Source: Dysgonamonadaceae bacterium (GTDB taxonomy: Bacteria; Bacteroidota; Bacteroidia; Bacteroidales; Dysgonomonadaceae). From it: 64,000 nucleotides of DNA. Shown here piece by piece: positions 3,294 through 64,000 of the stretch. The notes beneath the pieces are model-generated. The model was given only the letters and a program-made list of their open reading frames with translations. It made no database searches and was not told the DNA's origin. Numbering within the stretch: the first letter of the stretch is position 1; each line of letters opens with the position of its first letter. The stretch lies in assembly GCA_047605645.1 (NCBI GenBank), contig JASGFJ010000027.1:3329-67328 (forward strand). Reading direction: 5' to 3'. The translations under genes and the position numbers were made by a program.

Positions 3294-4091
3294 TCAGTCT
3301 TTTTGGGGAGTTTGACAACTACAGTTTTCGTGGTTGTGAAGCAATCGCATCGGCAAACCGTTGACAGGGCTATGGCCTATGATATCAATCGGATATGAGT
3401 ATGCCTTCTCAAGCCATTCGGAAGAGATATTGGTTCCTTCGTGGTAATGAAGTCCCTCGTTCACACAGGCAATATTTTTGACGAGCGACACAACGGAACC
3501 AATATCGTGCGATACCAGAATAATGGCCGTATTTTTATTTATTTCAAGTAAAATTTTATAGAAGTCAGACTCAAACTTTTTATCTACATAAGAATTCGGT
3601 TCATCCAGAATCAGGATATCGGGCTCATCTACAATGGAGCGTCCCAACAACACCCGTTGTAATTGCCCGCCGGATAACTGCCCGATAGGACGTGATAAGA
3701 AGTCCTGAAGCCCCATTTGCTGGGCCACATCCACCACTTTCTTCTTCTGCCGCGATGAATATCTTCCGAAAAGCCCCCGTGGCTGAGTCAACCCGGAGGA
3801 GATCACCTCGCGCACCGAGATTGGGAATTTCTTATCAACCTGATTAATCTGTGGCATATAACCGATATTAACCTTATCGGTAGACTGTCCGTTTTTATAA
3901 AACGTAATTTGCCCCGAAAACGGTTCTACAAGTCCCATAACAGACTTTAGTAAAGTAGTTTTTCCACCACCATTAGGTCCGATTATACCCAGAAAGTCAT
4001 TCTCATATACCGTCAGATTCACACCATTGAGCACCTGGTTGTCCTTTCCATAACCGGCACATAAATTCGCTATTTTCAGCACTTTATTCAT
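3294..4091 (-). CDS. znuC: Zn/Mn-type metal ABC transporter ATP-binding protein
   Basis: Walker A GPNGGGKT, signature LSGGQLQR, Walker B LILDEP, His/Cys tail HNHENCSC. Its stop abuts the convergent sdaA stop. Confidence 0.88.
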   Translation of the reverse strand: MNKVLKIANLCAGYGKDNQVLNGVNLTVYENDFLGIIGPNGGGKTTLLKSVMGLVEPFSGQITFYKNGQSTDKVNIGYMPQINQVDKKFPISVREVISSGLTQPRGLFGRYSSRQKKKVVDVAQQMGLQDFLSRPIGQLSGGQLQRVLLGRSIVDEPDILILDEPNSYVDKKFESDFYKILLEINKNTAIILVSHDIGSVVSLVKNIACVNEGLHYHEGTNISSEWLEKAYSYPIDIIGHSPVNGLPMRLLHNHENCSCQTPQKD

Positions 4092-4987
4092 TGGTTCGCT
4101 ATGGCTTTGGCAATTTTAATCATTTCATCTTTCCATTCGTAGGCCAGAGGATTTATTTCAAAGACCCTGCCGCCGATTTCACGGGCAAGCACCTGTGCAT
4201 TTTTCTTATCAAATTCCGGCTGAATAAAAATAGTTTTTATCCCCTTGCTTTTTGCTTCTCGAATGAGAGAAGTCATTTGTGAGGGCGACGGGCTTTTCCC
4301 GTTAAATTCTATAGAGAGCTGTTCCAATCCATATTCATCGGCAAAGTACGACAAGGCCGGATGATAAATAATAAAGGTTTTCTTCTGAGCCGATGCAAGA
4401 ATCGTGCGGACTATGGAATCCGTTTCACTGATTTCGTTTTTCAGATTGCTAAAATTCTGTTCGTAATAACTCTTGTTTACCGGATCCATTTTGACAACAC
4501 CCTCAAAAATACATTGAGCTACCAACAAAGCTGTCTTCGGAGAATTCCATATATGCGGATCAACAGTTCCGTGGCTGTGTCCTTCATGCGCATGTTCAGC
4601 AGATTGCATAAGAGACTTATCCTTTTGGATAGAAGAAGAACAGTCTACCAAGAGCATTTCAGGATTACTTTGGCTCAGATTATCTTTCCAGACTTTCTCA
4701 AATCCGAAAAGCCCAATCATAAAATAAGCTCTGCTATCTCCCAGTATCATCATTTCAGAAGGTGCAGGATCAAAAGATTCAGGATTACTACCTGCCGGAA
4801 CAACGGATTTGACAAGGAATTTATCCCCGACTATTTTCTCGGCAAAAAAACGTTGCGGTTCAATAGATACGGAAATATAATTATTGTTTTTGGTTGTCGC
4901 CTTTTTGGTACATCCGACAACAAAAATGCCGAAGAATACAAAGAGACAAAGTAATTTTAGATTCATTCTGTCAATTTTCAGTTTCAT
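4088..4987 (-). CDS. znuA: Zn/Mn ABC transporter substrate-binding lipoprotein (ZnuA/TroA family)
   Basis: Lipobox VVGC, VVPAGSNPESFDP, His-rich loop HAHEGHSHGTVDPHIWNSP, FIIYHPALSYFA. Confidence 0.88.
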   Translation of the reverse strand: MKLKIDRMNLKLLCLFVFFGIFVVGCTKKATTKNNNYISVSIEPQRFFAEKIVGDKFLVKSVVPAGSNPESFDPAPSEMMILGDSRAYFMIGLFGFEKVWKDNLSQSNPEMLLVDCSSSIQKDKSLMQSAEHAHEGHSHGTVDPHIWNSPKTALLVAQCIFEGVVKMDPVNKSYYEQNFSNLKNEISETDSIVRTILASAQKKTFIIYHPALSYFADEYGLEQLSIEFNGKSPSPSQMTSLIREAKSKGIKTIFIQPEFDKKNAQVLAREIGGRVFEINPLAYEWKDEMIKIAKAIANQ

Positions 4988-5021
4988 ACAAAGATACGAC
5001 TTTCAGACTGAAACCGATGTA

Positions 5022-5669
5022 TCATTTTTTAGTAAGGTCGTATATTTTACGTATTCCCTCCAGTTCTTTTTCAAAATCAATATTCAAATCCACAAGTCTG
5101 CCATTATGCAGGTCGTATACCCAGCCGACCACCCGCGGATATCCGGTTTCGTAGAAAGACTTCTGCACCTCTGCTGTTTTGATCACATTCAGGCATTGTT
5201 CTTTTACATTGATTTCAACAAATCTCCGATATCGCTCATCCACATTCGGTATTTCATCCAGTTCGTTTTGGTGTAAGCGATATACATCGCGAATATTACG
5301 AAGCCAGGGATTGAGAATACCTAAATCGCGAGGTTCCATTGCTGCTTTGATGCCACCACAATTATAATGTCCGCAAACGATTACATATTTTACTTTCAGA
5401 TGCACAACCGCATAATTAATCACCGACAATGCATTCAAGTCCGCATTCACCACCATATTTGCGATATTCCGGTGCACAAAAACCTGACCGGGCTCCAATC
5501 CCATAATTTCATTGGCATGCACCCGACTGTCGGAACATCCAATATAGAGAAAATCGGGATTTTGCTCTTTTGCCAGATGTTCAAAAAAGTTGGCATTATC
5601 TTTGGTTTTGGCTTCCACCCATGCTTTGTTTGCTTCAAATATATTTTGATATAACTCTTCTGTGCTCAT
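5022..5669 (-). CDS. can: Beta-class carbonic anhydrase
   Basis: CSDSRV and HYNCGG Zn ligands, GQVFVHRNIANMV. Likely start is ATG 5669 (MSTEELY). Confidence 0.93.
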   Translation of the reverse strand: MSTEELYQNIFEANKAWVEAKTKDNANFFEHLAKEQNPDFLYIGCSDSRVHANEIMGLEPGQVFVHRNIANMVVNADLNALSVINYAVVHLKVKYVIVCGHYNCGGIKAAMEPRDLGILNPWLRNIRDVYRLHQNELDEIPNVDERYRRFVEINVKEQCLNVIKTAEVQKSFYETGYPRVVGWVYDLHNGRLVDLNIDFEKELEGIRKIYDLTKK

Positions 5670-5954
5670 ATATTGTCGTTGATTGATTTGCACTCATAAC
5701 ATACAAACTTAATATCTCTACCAATAAGGAATACTATTTTTGTTGTTATGTAAAACAAAAAATCAGCCACAATGTTGAAGCGAATGGAAAATTTATCTCT
5801 TTTTTTATTCCCTCGAATTGGATTAAGAGCATCATTGAAACAAAAATAAAAAGAGAGTTTAAATCGCCATTTCACGTTTCTAAAGAAGTTTTTATGAATT
5901 ATATTGATGAAAGATGTATTACTTTTGCATATTCTTAAGCATTGAAACTCCATT

Positions 5955-6983
5955 ATGGTCAAAATAGAAAATATTTCAAAAACATTTTATCGGAAAGGTG
6001 TTCCTTTCAAGGCTTTGGATGATGTAAGCCTGGAGATAGAGGAGGGCCAAATTGTGGGCATTATCGGAAGCTCCGGAGCAGGAAAAAGCACCTTAATACG
6101 ATGTGTCAATCTCCTTGAAAAACCGGATTCCGGAAAAGTGCTAATCGACGGAATAGACCTAACCAGCTTACCTTCAAAAAAGTTGGCAACGGAGCGGAAA
6201 AAGATAGGTATGATATTTCAGCATTTCAACCTGCTATCTTCCCGTACGGTTTTCGAAAATATTGCTCTCCCTCTGGAATTAGACAAAGTAGATAAGGGTA
6301 AAATAGAGAAAAGAGTATCCGAGTTACTTCAACTGGTGGATCTGGAGGAAAAAAGAGACGAATATCCTAAAAATCTTTCCGGTGGACAAAAACAACGGGT
6401 TGCCATTGCCCGCGCCTTGGCCAATGAGCCGCACCTGCTTCTTTGCGACGAAGCAACCAGTGCTCTTGACCCGTCCACTACTTTATCCATCCTCCGCCTG
6501 CTGCGTGACATCAACAACCGGTTGAATATAACAATTCTATTGATCACGCATGAAATGGATGTTGTGAAAACGATTTGCGACAATATTGCGGTGATAGATC
6601 AGGGTAAAGTAGTTGCAAACGGTACATTGGAAGAACTTCTCACCAAAGATTCGCATCCGATTCTCCGCAAATTTATGCAAACCAATTCCTTAGGACTTCC
6701 TCAGGAGCTTCACAAAAAGCTTCGCAAAACACAGGAGAAAGGATTGTATCCGGTAATAGAACTCGAGTTCAACGGAACAATGGCTGTGGACGAATTATTG
6801 TCATACATCCAAGAAAATGAAACGACAACATTCTCCACGATCAAATCCGACATGGAAACGATCGGCAACAAGAGTTATGGCAAGCTTATTTTACATGTGA
6901 AGGCCGAACAAGGCAAATTCGATGTAATTGCAAGTTATTTAAACAACAATCAGATAAACATAAATCTTCGGGGATATGCTTGA
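5955..6983 (+). CDS. metN: Methionine ABC transporter ATP-binding protein
   Basis: GSSGAGKSTLIRCVNLLE, KIGMIFQHFNLLSSRTVFENIALPLE, LSGGQKQRVAIARALA, LLCDEATSALDP, plus a C-terminal extension. Confidence 0.92.
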   Translation: MVKIENISKTFYRKGVPFKALDDVSLEIEEGQIVGIIGSSGAGKSTLIRCVNLLEKPDSGKVLIDGIDLTSLPSKKLATERKKIGMIFQHFNLLSSRTVFENIALPLELDKVDKGKIEKRVSELLQLVDLEEKRDEYPKNLSGGQKQRVAIARALANEPHLLLCDEATSALDPSTTLSILRLLRDINNRLNITILLITHEMDVVKTICDNIAVIDQGKVVANGTLEELLTKDSHPILRKFMQTNSLGLPQELHKKLRKTQEKGLYPVIELEFNGTMAVDELLSYIQENETTTFSTIKSDMETIGNKSYGKLILHVKAEQGKFDVIASYLNNNQININLRGYA

Positions 6984-7629
6984 TGCCACCACACTATTAT
7001 TGCTAAAAGGGCTTTGGGAAACAATCGTTATGACGTTTGCTTCCGGATTTTTTGGTTTTCTCATTGGCCTTCCTGCCGGAACAGCTTTGTTTTTGACAAG
7101 AAAAGGACAATTGCTTGAAAACAAGACGTACCACCGCCTGCTGGCTACACTCGTGAATGTATTCCGATCAATCCCCTTTATCATATTGATTGTCTGGATG
7201 ATTCCATTCACCCGGATGCTGGTAGGGACATCCATTGGAATGGCTGCAGCACTTGTACCGTTAAGCATCGGCGCAGCACCTTTTATCGCACGGCTGGTAG
7301 AAAACAGTTTATTGGAAGTACCCGGCGGACTGATAGAAACGGCCCGATCAATGGGAGCTACTCCGTTTCAGGTTGTAACGAAAGTACTTTTACCGGAAGC
7401 TCTACCTTCGTTGGTCAACAATGCAGCCATTACACTCATTACATTGGTCGGATATTCGGCAATGGGAGGTGCCGTGGGCGCCGGAGGATTAGGGCAGATC
7501 GGATATCAATACGGATACATCGGATACGATACATTCATTATGAATACAGTACTTGTGCTGTTGGTTGCGCTGGTATTTCTTATTCAATTTGCCGGAGATA
7601 AAATTTCTCGAAAACTGAATCACAAATAG
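6976..7629 (+). CDS. metI: Methionine ABC transporter permease
   Basis: RSIPFIILIVWMIPFTR, GLIETARSMGAT, ITLVGYSAMGGAVGAGGLGQIGYQYGY. Confidence 0.93.
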   Translation: MLDATTLLLLKGLWETIVMTFASGFFGFLIGLPAGTALFLTRKGQLLENKTYHRLLATLVNVFRSIPFIILIVWMIPFTRMLVGTSIGMAAALVPLSIGAAPFIARLVENSLLEVPGGLIETARSMGATPFQVVTKVLLPEALPSLVNNAAITLITLVGYSAMGGAVGAGGLGQIGYQYGYIGYDTFIMNTVLVLLVALVFLIQFAGDKISRKLNHK

Positions 7630-62687: not shown

Positions 62688-62710
62688 GGGCGTAGGCTCC
62701 GCCTACGTCC
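62688..62710. repeat. Small REP-like or terminator hairpin
   Basis: GGGCGTAGGC-TCC-GCCTACGTCC between convergent genes. Confidence 0.5.
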
Positions 62711-62886
62711 TGACTAAGCCCAAACTACATTTGTGAATACAAATGAAGTATAAAAAGACAAGCGACAAAAAAAGCAATATTCGCGAAACTATCAACAGAT
62801 AAAATGCCTTTCTGCTTAGAATATATCGATTTAGAAGGCGGAGGAGGCAGAGGGGAATTGGTCAGAAGTTCTCAAAGCAAGACTGC

Positions 62887-63447
62887 TCAGATATTTTCAG
62901 GATATACTATCTTGAAATTTTGGAGAGGAAATGTTCCCTTTTCAAATATACAGATTTGGATTAAAGGTTGCATATCCAGCCGTTGATTATAATTTTTCCA
63001 TTTATTATTTTTCTTATATTTTATTGTCAAAGAATATTCATCATCATATCGCCTCGTTTCTAGACTTGATGCTCGAATTGCCTTATAGTTAAATTCTTTT
63101 ACCACCTTTCTTAATAAGGCAATAACATCCGAAACAACTATTTCATCTCCATATTTGCCACTTTCTTTCATCTCTTTGCATATTGCTGTAAAATCATTCA
63201 GATGTTCAGTGTTTCCCTGTAAATCAAAACAGTACGCCATATCAAAATCATATCGAGCCTCGCATATTATGTAATTTTGCGCATATCCTTTTCCACCCCA
63301 CCAATGAGCATTCCCAATAAATGTATCCCAGAAGTAATAACCGGGACCTAGCCATGCATCAAGATCTGGACACCGAAATGGGCCATCCCGTTCTACCTCA
63401 TCGTAGTTTCCTTTATTTTGAAGAGTTTGATACAATATCCTAGCCAC
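62887..63447 (-). CDS. Putative ADP-ribosyltransferase-fold toxin (CmdT-like)
   Basis: N-terminal YQTL...WLGPGYYFWD...AHWWG and C-terminal LIQICIF resemble the HGT/WLGxGxYFW/QIC pattern of CmdT-like ARTs; adjacent to a SecB-like gene. Confidence 0.6.
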   Translation of the reverse strand: MARILYQTLQNKGNYDEVERDGPFRCPDLDAWLGPGYYFWDTFIGNAHWWGGKGYAQNYIICEARYDFDMAYCFDLQGNTEHLNDFTAICKEMKESGKYGDEIVVSDVIALLRKVVKEFNYKAIRASSLETRRYDDEYSLTIKYKKNNKWKNYNQRLDMQPLIQICIFEKGTFPLQNFKIVYPENI

Positions 63448-63454
63448 TGCCTAA

Positions 63455-63874
63455 TTAATTATTTGAAATGGTAGTATTCTGTTTTAAAGGCTCTGCTAAT
63501 GATACCAGGTTCCATGTAGGTAGCATAATCGGCGGAAGAATATTAGCTTGTAAAGTTATAGTGCTTACAAATGCACGTACAAATGGGAATAGAATTGCGA
63601 TACTATTAGTATAAAAATAATCTGGAACCTCTTCAAAACGTATATTGCTCTCAAATTTAAATAAAGCAACACATCGAATTCTTATAAATGGTTTTTCTGG
63701 GTTCTTATCAAATGCAATAAATGTAAAAGTCAGCTCAAATGTACTGGATTCACTTTTTCTAAAAATACCAGCGGGTTTAAAGTCTATTTTGATTTCTTTT
63801 GAAGACTGATTTTCTAAATCTACAAAAATCTTATCAAATTTATATTCCTTCAATGAAAATGTTGCTTTGTCCAT
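63455..63874 (-). CDS. SecB-like chaperone
   Basis: 139 aa, FSLKEYKFDKI start, CVALFKF, NSIAILFPFVRAFVSTITLQANILPPIMLPTWNL (SecB C-terminal helix pattern). Confidence 0.88.
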   Translation of the reverse strand: MDKATFSLKEYKFDKIFVDLENQSSKEIKIDFKPAGIFRKSESSTFELTFTFIAFDKNPEKPFIRIRCVALFKFESNIRFEEVPDYFYTNSIAILFPFVRAFVSTITLQANILPPIMLPTWNLVSLAEPLKQNTTISNN

Positions 63875-63927
63875 AGTAATAGATAAATTACATCGTTTTT
63901 AATCTGAAACAAACTGAATATGAGAAC

Positions 63928-63935
63928 CAAATATA
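63928..63935 (-). promoter_or_regulatory. Bacteroidetes -7 promoter element driving the SecB-like/ART pair
   Basis: Minus strand TATATTTG, 53 nt upstream of the ATG. Confidence 0.6.
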
Positions 63936-63936
63936 T

Positions 63937-63964
63937 AAAAAAATCCGAAGAAATCTTCGGATTT
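63937..63964 (-). terminator. Terminator of an upstream gene outside the window
   Basis: Minus strand AAATCCGAAG-ATTT-CTTCGGATTT followed by a T-run. Confidence 0.8.
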
Positions 63965-64000
63965 ATGAGTTTTATTTGAGAGGTTTAATTTCCACGGATC

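Follow-up and report, generated by a model that had tools for sequence, protein, structure and literature searches.

The DNA analysed here is a stretch of 64,000 nucleotides from a Dysgonamonadaceae bacterium, referred to below as the window (contig JASGFJ010000027.1 of assembly GCA_047605645.1; G000:C27:3329-67328). The question raised by its right-hand end is whether a SecB-like chaperone gene and the toxin-like gene next to it, both on the minus strand, constitute a defence operon of their own or belong to a larger toxin-antitoxin-chaperone (TAC) module. An earlier note, confined to the window, had described a two-gene operon with no antitoxin and in reversed order, either streamlined so that the chaperone restrains the toxin directly or left over from a decayed TAC locus. 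For the present analysis the contig was read past the window edge (L004, G000:C27:64328-70832; a window coordinate equals the L004 coordinate plus 60999, and the window ends at 64000). We conclude with high confidence that the locus is a complete, intact and horizontally acquired module of the CmdTAC type, which is the same system as PD-T4-9 (PMC9519451, PMC11618068), with the gene order cmdA (85 aa), cmdC (139 aa) and cmdT (186 aa) and with a hairpin inside cmdA that would act as a partial terminator. The CmdTAC family is already known; the variant traits of this member are the A-C-T order, a catalytic triad of the Gln type, an antitoxin without a degron and a covarying, terminator-like hairpin within the antitoxin gene.

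The antitoxin gene at the window edge

Two of the three genes lie entirely within the window. The cmdC-like gene for the SecB-type chaperone (139 aa, 63455..63874) is followed after a gap of 7 nt by the cmdT-like toxin gene (186 aa, 62887..63447), both on the minus strand, and the motifs YQTL, WLGPGYYFW and LIQIC are all present in the 186-aa protein; on these points the earlier description of the locus was accurate. Its assignment to the CmdTAC family is also borne out by our profile searches. The 186-aa protein matched the PADLOC model PD-T4-9_A (PDLC04068) with E=1.7e-60, residues 3-185 falling on model positions 4-180 of 187, and the 139-aa protein matched PD-T4-9_C (PDLC04072) with E=1.3e-54. 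CmdT and CmdC lie within two genes of each other, as the published rule for calling CmdTAC asks (PMC11618068). Resemblance of the 139-aa protein to SecB itself is weak (Pfam E=2.8e-4, under the gathering score; NCBIfam 2e-5, under the cut-off), and solved structures of SecB are found by a profile of the chaperone family with E=1.1e-3.

The third gene crosses the window edge. An ORF (open reading frame) of 85 aa occupies L004 2900-3157 on the minus strand (window-equivalent 63899-64156) and ends 24 nt ahead of the chaperone start. Only its last 33 codons and the stop codon (63899..64000) fall inside the window, where they were listed as a '5open' ORF, and the reported lack of a small antitoxin ORF is an artefact of that edge. 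A homologous small ORF was found at the same position, before the chaperone gene, in 100 loci of A-C-T order. An unannotated antitoxin ORF shared by the homologous loci is what the earlier note itself had named as a result that would refute its two-gene reading, and that reading is refuted. The profile of these small ORFs matched the ORF in the CmdA position of several T-A-C loci (L119 9e-11, L066 3e-8, L102 1e-7 and L121 2e-5), reached that of the Vibrio-type loci L034/L035 at about 5e-3 and, in an hhalign comparison with the annotated CmdA of a Vibrio phage, gave E=3.8e-4 over the N-terminal 44 columns. No hhalign signal was obtained with the Acinetobacter CmdA or with the CmdA-like ORF on contig C14 of the same genome, since these antitoxins are too divergent for a single-sequence comparison. 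A search of viral contigs with the Vibrio CmdT returned only two near-identical loci, too few for a profile of canonical CmdA, and a Pfam search of the 85-aa ORF gave no match.

The small gene also behaves as a protein-coding gene. Over the N-terminal 45 codons of cmdA we observed a coding signature and purifying selection (differences at codon positions in the order 3>1>2; 41% of single-base codon differences synonymous), and after the hairpin described below the gene is unconstrained (20% synonymous) and variable in length. The AlphaFold2 model of the 85-aa protein shows helices at residues 3-50 and a disordered tail of low confidence at 45-85. This shape agrees with the published description of CmdA as N-terminal helices followed by a long disordered C-terminal tail (PMC11618068) and thereby supports the identification of the ORF as an antitoxin. 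Gene content, gene order and the homology of all three proteins were read directly from the loci, and as judged by these comparisons the 85-aa ORF is a cmdA-like antitoxin gene, the predicted third member of a full CmdTAC module.

Toxin signature, gene order and mobility of the module

The cmdT product is a predicted ADP-ribosyltransferase (ART) with the triad Q7-Y38-Q164. Among the 149 closest representatives at 50% identity, Tyr38 is invariant (149/149) and Gln164 is kept in 141/149, and the first position of the triad is occupied by Gln in 118/149 and by His in 29/149, the two states being interleaved; the F-H-x-C of canonical members corresponds to [YF]-Q-T-[LV] in the A-C-T clade. The published triad is H-Y-[E/D/Q], with Y41 essential in E. 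coli CmdT. To judge from these alignments, the signature of the CmdT family is [H/Q]-Y-Q, and Gln appears to be a tolerated state, not a sign of decay. The AlphaFold2 model of the toxin is of good quality (predicted local distance difference test, pLDDT, 87; predicted template modelling score, pTM, 0.83), and in the Foldseek comparison with ART folds that the earlier note had suggested, the best match was the ART domain of PARP-1, at a level that is not significant (E=0.14, probability 0.60, template modelling score 0.39). Other ART toxin domains recurred among the non-significant matches of the model. Because the structure searches were not significant, the ART assignment rests on homology to the experimentally characterised CmdT and not on an independent fold match. 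An elongated relative was observed in a metagenome-assembled genome of Lachnospiraceae (L026 3227-4129), where a CmdT-like ORF of 300 aa carries the homology at residues 9-178, followed by about 120 extra C-terminal residues.

Species genomes supplied 27 loci, of which 26 have both a chaperone and a toxin gene, always with the chaperone gene first, and a small ORF precedes the chaperone gene except in L021, where the contig starts just upstream of the chaperone, and in L024, which is without a chaperone match. The set of relatives was enlarged by 80 metagenome loci and 15 viral loci, and gene order was assigned by a hidden Markov model pipeline. The 100 A-C-T loci come from this enlarged set, and 13 further loci with only the chaperone and toxin genes are mostly cut at contig edges. 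The T-A-C order was found in L032, L033, L034, L035 and L038, which include a Vibrio phage annotated with PD-T4-9 A, B and C and an Acinetobacter plasmid. The order at our locus is therefore different from the canonical one, as had been claimed, and it is a cyclic permutation of T-A-C that keeps cmdA and cmdC adjacent, not a reversal. According to Sala et al. (PMC3581621), the antitoxin gene lay downstream of the toxin gene in every TAC system known at that time. In the toxin tree, the proteobacterial members with T-A-C order and a His-type triad form the outgroup, and those with A-C-T order group in a large clade that is mainly of Bacteroidota and also takes in some Bacillota and sequences from viral contigs. 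Two loci (L116 2265-3031 and L117 1956-2722) show a chaperone-less two-gene form, in which a 70-aa CmdA-like ORF stands 14 nt ahead of a full CmdT-like gene, with no SecB-like gene nearby. Their CmdA-like ORF lacks the FF tail, the hairpin and the -AA end, and they represent a natural toxin-antitoxin counterpart of the TAC form.

A number of features characterize the module as foreign to its surroundings. All three ORFs are intact, and the block is AT-richer than its neighbours, as had been noticed before (GC content 0.27-0.39 versus 0.45-0.52 in the genes around it). In 4 genomes of the same genus and 20 of the same family the module is missing. It is bracketed by a 69-bp direct repeat (left copy 62702..62770; right copy at window-equivalent 64472-64540, L004 3473-3541), the two copies of which are 87% identical, are the only ones in the 4.78-Mb genome and enclose the 1.77-kb module. 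A GGCGTAGGC...GCCTACG hairpin precedes each copy, one 1799-nt contig in the DNA run covers exactly the interval from repeat to repeat, and no recombinase gene lies between the copies. The repeat is probably an insertion or duplication scar. Fifteen viral contigs of IMG/VR (L122-L136) carry the A-C-T module, and E. coli CmdTAC has been found on prophages (Mets et al.). AT-rich, missing from these related genomes, flanked by repeats and with relatives on viral contigs, the module is accessory, mobile cargo. A comparison with the empty site gave nothing, because identity to the genomes of the same genus is as low as about 65% in the flanking old-yellow-enzyme gene, so that the intergenic region could not be aligned.

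Two further observations concern the surroundings of the module and its genome. Immediately to its right, from L004 3498-3700 on to the contig end, lies a high-copy repeat represented by many partial contigs, with a summed contig depth of 3467-7201 versus about 115 for the module (run X1); this repeat is the probable reason for the end of the contig some 3 kb beyond. Another contig carries a second CmdTAC-like locus, in T-A-C order (L038, G000:C14:11406-14546, at about 1495-2748 in locus coordinates). Its toxin keeps the His ('MYHTQ') and, where the invariant Trp of GYYFW should stand, has a TAG codon ('WLGEGYYF*'); a 108-aa ORF ending in '...NYAIAA' and a 134-aa chaperone (PD-T4-9_C 1e-25) follow. 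The locus looks like a copy with an inactivated toxin in which predicted antitoxin and chaperone are retained.

A covarying hairpin and a selected T-run inside cmdA

Inside cmdA, on the minus strand, lies a hairpin with a 10-bp stem and a 4-nt loop (63941..63964; free energy, dG, -11.8 kcal/mol), the arms of which encode K-S-E-D-F-F-G-F. It is followed directly on its 3' side by the T-run TTTTATATAT (63931..63940), so that a stable stem-loop and an adjoining U-tract stand on the transcribed strand, the arrangement of an intrinsic terminator. The terminator-like element that had been placed upstream of a two-gene operon is real and is located within the antitoxin ORF. Of the first 24 loci, 23 have a hairpin of -9 to -16 kcal/mol with a T-run at this place, and so do 71 of the 100 A-C-T loci, with 45 distinct sequences among them. 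The median distance of the hairpin ahead of the chaperone start is 31 nt (from -41 to 252, and from 15 to 66 nt among the first 23 loci), its reading frame is constant, and the stop codon of cmdA always follows it within 5-75 nt.

Conservation of the hairpin resides in its pairing. In an alignment of 24 sequences, 95.9% of the stem cells are paired and 7 of the 10 pairs have changed on both sides; double changes were counted in 24 cells, compared with 6.4+-2.1 in shuffles (0/500), and in slid registers the pairing falls to 59.5% or less. In one compensation a synonymous Asn AAT->AAC is paired with Asp GAT->Gly GGT, and in another Ser TCG->Leu CTG is paired with CCG->CCA. A synonymous change on one arm that is matched by a non-conservative amino-acid change on the other argues for selection on the pairing. 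The T-tract shows selection of a similar kind: its Phe codons are TTT in 86 cases and TTC in 1, versus 1051 : 247 in the rest of the operons (Fisher p=7e-7, 45 distinct hairpins), and the U-tract is therefore selected as nucleotides and not as Phe. The loop xTTTAC (Phe-Thr) is fairly conserved. A search of Rfam at the locus revealed no family matching the hairpin. At the canonical T-A-C loci of Vibrio, Acinetobacter and contig C14 no hairpin is found at the end of cmdA, and three Vibrio-type T-A-C loci have a terminator-like hairpin placed after cmdC; the T-A-C locus L066 does carry the hairpin. Two other functions, a protein operator and an integron attC-like site, were considered and rejected: what is conserved is complementarity, not sequence, and a selected U-tract follows the short element.

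Of 75 distinct loci, 66 have the Bacteroidota -7 motif TAnnTTTG upstream of cmdA; at the present locus it occupies window-equivalent 64210-64217 and precedes the cmdA ATG by about 61 nt. The promoter assumed earlier for the chaperone gene, TATATTTG (63928..63935, minus strand), is a motif of the same type 61 nt upstream of the cmdC start; it exists as described, and it comes directly after the T-run, inside cmdA and not upstream of the operon. Such a motif occurs at only 3 of 24 A-C junctions (the others being L013 and L025), for which reason a separate promoter for cmdC and cmdT was rejected as a conserved feature, and TATATTTG is a possible internal promoter of this locus only. With the motif upstream of cmdA and rarely at the junction, cmdC and cmdT must be transcribed through the hairpin.

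The C-terminal end of the antitoxin varies together with the hairpin. Canonical CmdA proteins end in -AA (...GFAA, ...QIAA, ...AIAA), and an AA-to-DD mutant was stabilised against ClpXP (bioRxiv 10.1101/2024.02.24.581848). In the intact A-C-T loci without a hairpin, CmdA ends in -AA (11 loci) or in -AV (16 loci, one human-gut lineage), 27 of 29 in all, and several of these tails are near-copies of the SsrA tag ('...KNNDYALAA', '...KYCLAA', '...QYGMAA'); the tag encoded by the transfer-messenger RNA (tmRNA) of the source genome is GENNYALAA. Variable, non-degron ends were found in 65 of the 71 loci with a hairpin. Both states also divide the viral contigs, L128-L135 being hairpin-less and of the '...YCLAA' type and L123, L124, L125 and L127 having the hairpin, and L066, the T-A-C locus with a hairpin, is as well without -AA. 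One lineage (L079, L080, L081, L098, L120 and L126) has both the hairpin with its T-run and, directly after it, an SsrA-like end ('...NPEFTLDFFYLAA', '...GNPEFTLDFFYLAA', '...FFYLAA'); it may represent a transitional state between encoded degron and hairpin. The complementarity of hairpin and tail is suggestive and phylogenetically clustered: with about 3-4 changes on the best tree, and well-supported branches compatible with a single origin, it does not amount to a replicated association.

Working model, rival readings and known systems

From the homology with the E. coli system, which makes its mechanism likely, we infer the biochemical activities and the defence role of the module. CmdA would fold and neutralise CmdT through its N-terminal helices, and a tetramer of the SecB-like CmdC would hold and protect the disordered aromatic tail of CmdA. 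A phage protein titrating the chaperone would lead to the loss of CmdA, upon which CmdT would abort the infection. On the side of activity, CmdTAC is defined by ADP-ribosylation of mRNA, defence through abortive infection and a phage structural protein as trigger. Transcription would start at the Bacteroidota-type promoter upstream of cmdA and would have to pass the hairpin and the U-tract in the last third of cmdA on its way to cmdC and cmdT. As a partial intrinsic terminator, or attenuator, the element would yield more cmdA message than cmdC-cmdT message; since the hairpin precedes the cmdA stop codon, the terminated transcripts would be non-stop. Partial termination is the most conservative and, we infer, the most likely reading of the hairpin, and it fits a labile antitoxin that needs over-production. 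A 183-nt metatranscriptome contig (L004 2984-3166) spans cmdA, beginning 9 nt upstream of the ATG and stopping 19 nt short of the hairpin, and the same low-depth data have no similar contig for cmdC or cmdT, a pattern compatible with attenuation and far too thin to show it. A search for RNA runs from a cultured carrier, made for the Riemerella locus, returned none.

Several points weigh against a complete CmdTAC module with an attenuator. The PADLOC antitoxin model PD-T4-9_B has no match at the locus, elsewhere in its own genome or on the 85-aa ORF, and it reaches only 2 of 25 family members, at E>=0.015. The first triad position is Gln and not the published His, Foldseek gave no significant match in the PDB for the toxin model, and the profile of the toxin family found no match among solved structures. 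The gene order is not the canonical T-A-C, CmdA ends in ...HIQFVSD without the Ala-Ala end that serves the E. coli protein as a ClpXP degron, and the transcript evidence consists of a single contig of low depth. As to the hairpin, attenuation before cmdC fits poorly with the published T:A:C stoichiometry of 1:1:4, in L066 with its T-A-C order the hairpin would lower the message of the chaperone and not that of the toxin, and a hairpin before the stop codon does not fit pure attenuation. Because of this position and of the occurrence in L066, two other readings were kept beside the partial terminator. One is anti-termination coupled to translation. In attenuators of the pyrBI type an ORF reads through the intrinsic terminator hairpin, and a ribosome close behind the polymerase could suppress termination here in the same manner; the two cases share the ORF running through a terminator hairpin and differ in that the ORF here is, by prediction, a functional 85-aa protein and not a leader peptide.

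The other is the production of non-stop transcripts with SsrA tagging. According to this reading, non-stop messages of cmdA arise at the hairpin as part of a programme; ribosomes stall on them and tmRNA adds the SsrA tag (GENNYALAA), a ClpXP degron supplied in trans, which would be shielded by the chaperone sitting on the FF tail next to it. The stop codon that always follows the hairpin by 5-75 nt, the unconstrained and length-variable sequence in between, the -AA or -AV ends of hairpin-less loci (27/29) as opposed to the non-degron ends of hairpin loci (65/71), the near-copies of the SsrA tag among encoded tails and the identity of the tag in this genome all point in this direction, as do the AA-to-DD result for canonical CmdA (bioRxiv 10.1101/2024.02.24.581848) and the missing -AA in L066. 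On the other hand, the complementarity rests on few independent events, with a toxin tree compatible with a single origin; one lineage combines the hairpin with '...FFYLAA'; non-stop messages are usually wasteful; and read-through would still be required for cmdC and cmdT. We regard this reading as unlikely, and its broader form as a shade more doubtful, namely that in a large, mostly Bacteroidota clade of CmdTAC the degradation tag of the antitoxin would be supplied by trans-translation through the terminator inside cmdA, while hairpin-less lineages would encode a mimic of SsrA (...YALAA). If true, this would be a defence system that sets the lability of its antitoxin by programmed non-stop transcription and ribosome rescue, and a system tagged by trans-translation might sense interference of phages with the coupling of transcription and translation.

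Stem-loops that give operon segments different stabilities are an established means of setting stoichiometry, and the hairpin could accordingly be a post-transcriptional 3' stabiliser or ribonuclease processing site that makes the cmdA segment longer-lived than the cmdC-cmdT segment without termination. Its constant position and its covariation would suit such a role. Against it, the T-run is under selection as a nucleotide sequence although a stabiliser could do without a U-tract, and processing at this site would cut the cmdA ORF before its stop codon, so that we hold this explanation to be improbable. Lower still we place the possibility that the hairpin has no function in RNA and is a by-product of selection on a chaperone-addiction peptide, N-P-K-F-T-S-D-F-F, the codons of which are self-complementary (AAA/TTT, GAA/TTC, TCC/GGA). 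The constant frame, the aromatic residues of a kind recognised by SecB-like chaperones (Mets et al.) and the fairly conserved Phe-Thr loop speak for it. Compensatory changes keep the stem and alter the peptide non-conservatively, however, and the pairing of 95.9% is lost in slid registers. The tract has TTT:TTC at 86:1 compared with 81% TTT elsewhere, as expected for selection on U and not on Phe, and hairpin-less lineages lack the motif altogether.

Decay of the locus into a TAC remnant, to which the copy on contig C14 with its nonsense codon in the toxin gene might lend some credence, is very improbable, given that all three ORFs are full length against the models and retain the invariant residues. 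The streamlined toxin-chaperone module in which the SecB-like protein directly restrains the toxin is the least credible explanation of all, as the two complete genes visible inside the 64-kb window and the silent antitoxin model are outweighed by an intact ORF that starts just past the window edge, is conserved in 100 loci, is homologous to the CmdA of T-A-C loci and has an N-terminus under purifying selection.

The preferred reading, a complete CmdTAC module, has consequences beyond this locus. A large set of such modules will be scored as incomplete or as two-gene systems, because their antitoxin gene is short, opens the operon and escapes the antitoxin model now in use. At least 100 loci were fetched, and the toxin family comprises 587 clusters at 50% identity (E<=1e-10), nearly all labelled 'hypothetical protein'. 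Moreover, the clade offers natural contrasts: some lineages have a hairpin and others encode an SsrA-like tail, one combines the two, and a two-gene form does without the chaperone. With these it becomes testable what sets the lability and stoichiometry of antitoxins in defence systems gated by a chaperone.

Among known systems, HigBA-SecB of M. tuberculosis (PMC3581621, PMC5105189) has the tripartite logic in common with this module, with a chaperone-addicted antitoxin the C-terminal tail of which binds a SecB-like chaperone; it differs in that the classical TAC has an RNase toxin followed by the antitoxin, whereas here the antitoxin gene comes first and the predicted toxin is an ART. The covarying hairpin with its U-tract inside the antitoxin gene is absent from the canonical T-A-C loci of Vibrio, Acinetobacter and contig C14 that were examined, and among T-A-C loci the close relative L066 has it too. 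The nearest known system is the E. coli CmdTAC (ECOR22, O112ab:H26; PMC9519451, PMC11618068, bioRxiv 10.1101/2024.02.24.581848). Toxin, SecB-like chaperone and small antitoxin are all homologous between the two, and in both the three genes are closely linked, accessory or mobile and in part phage-borne. The catalytic Tyr and the Gln in third position are kept, and the first position is Gln here and His there. The order is A-C-T in a host of Bacteroidota type in place of T-A-C, the antitoxin is without the C-terminal Ala-Ala degron and is missed by the PADLOC B model, and the present system is known from its sequence.

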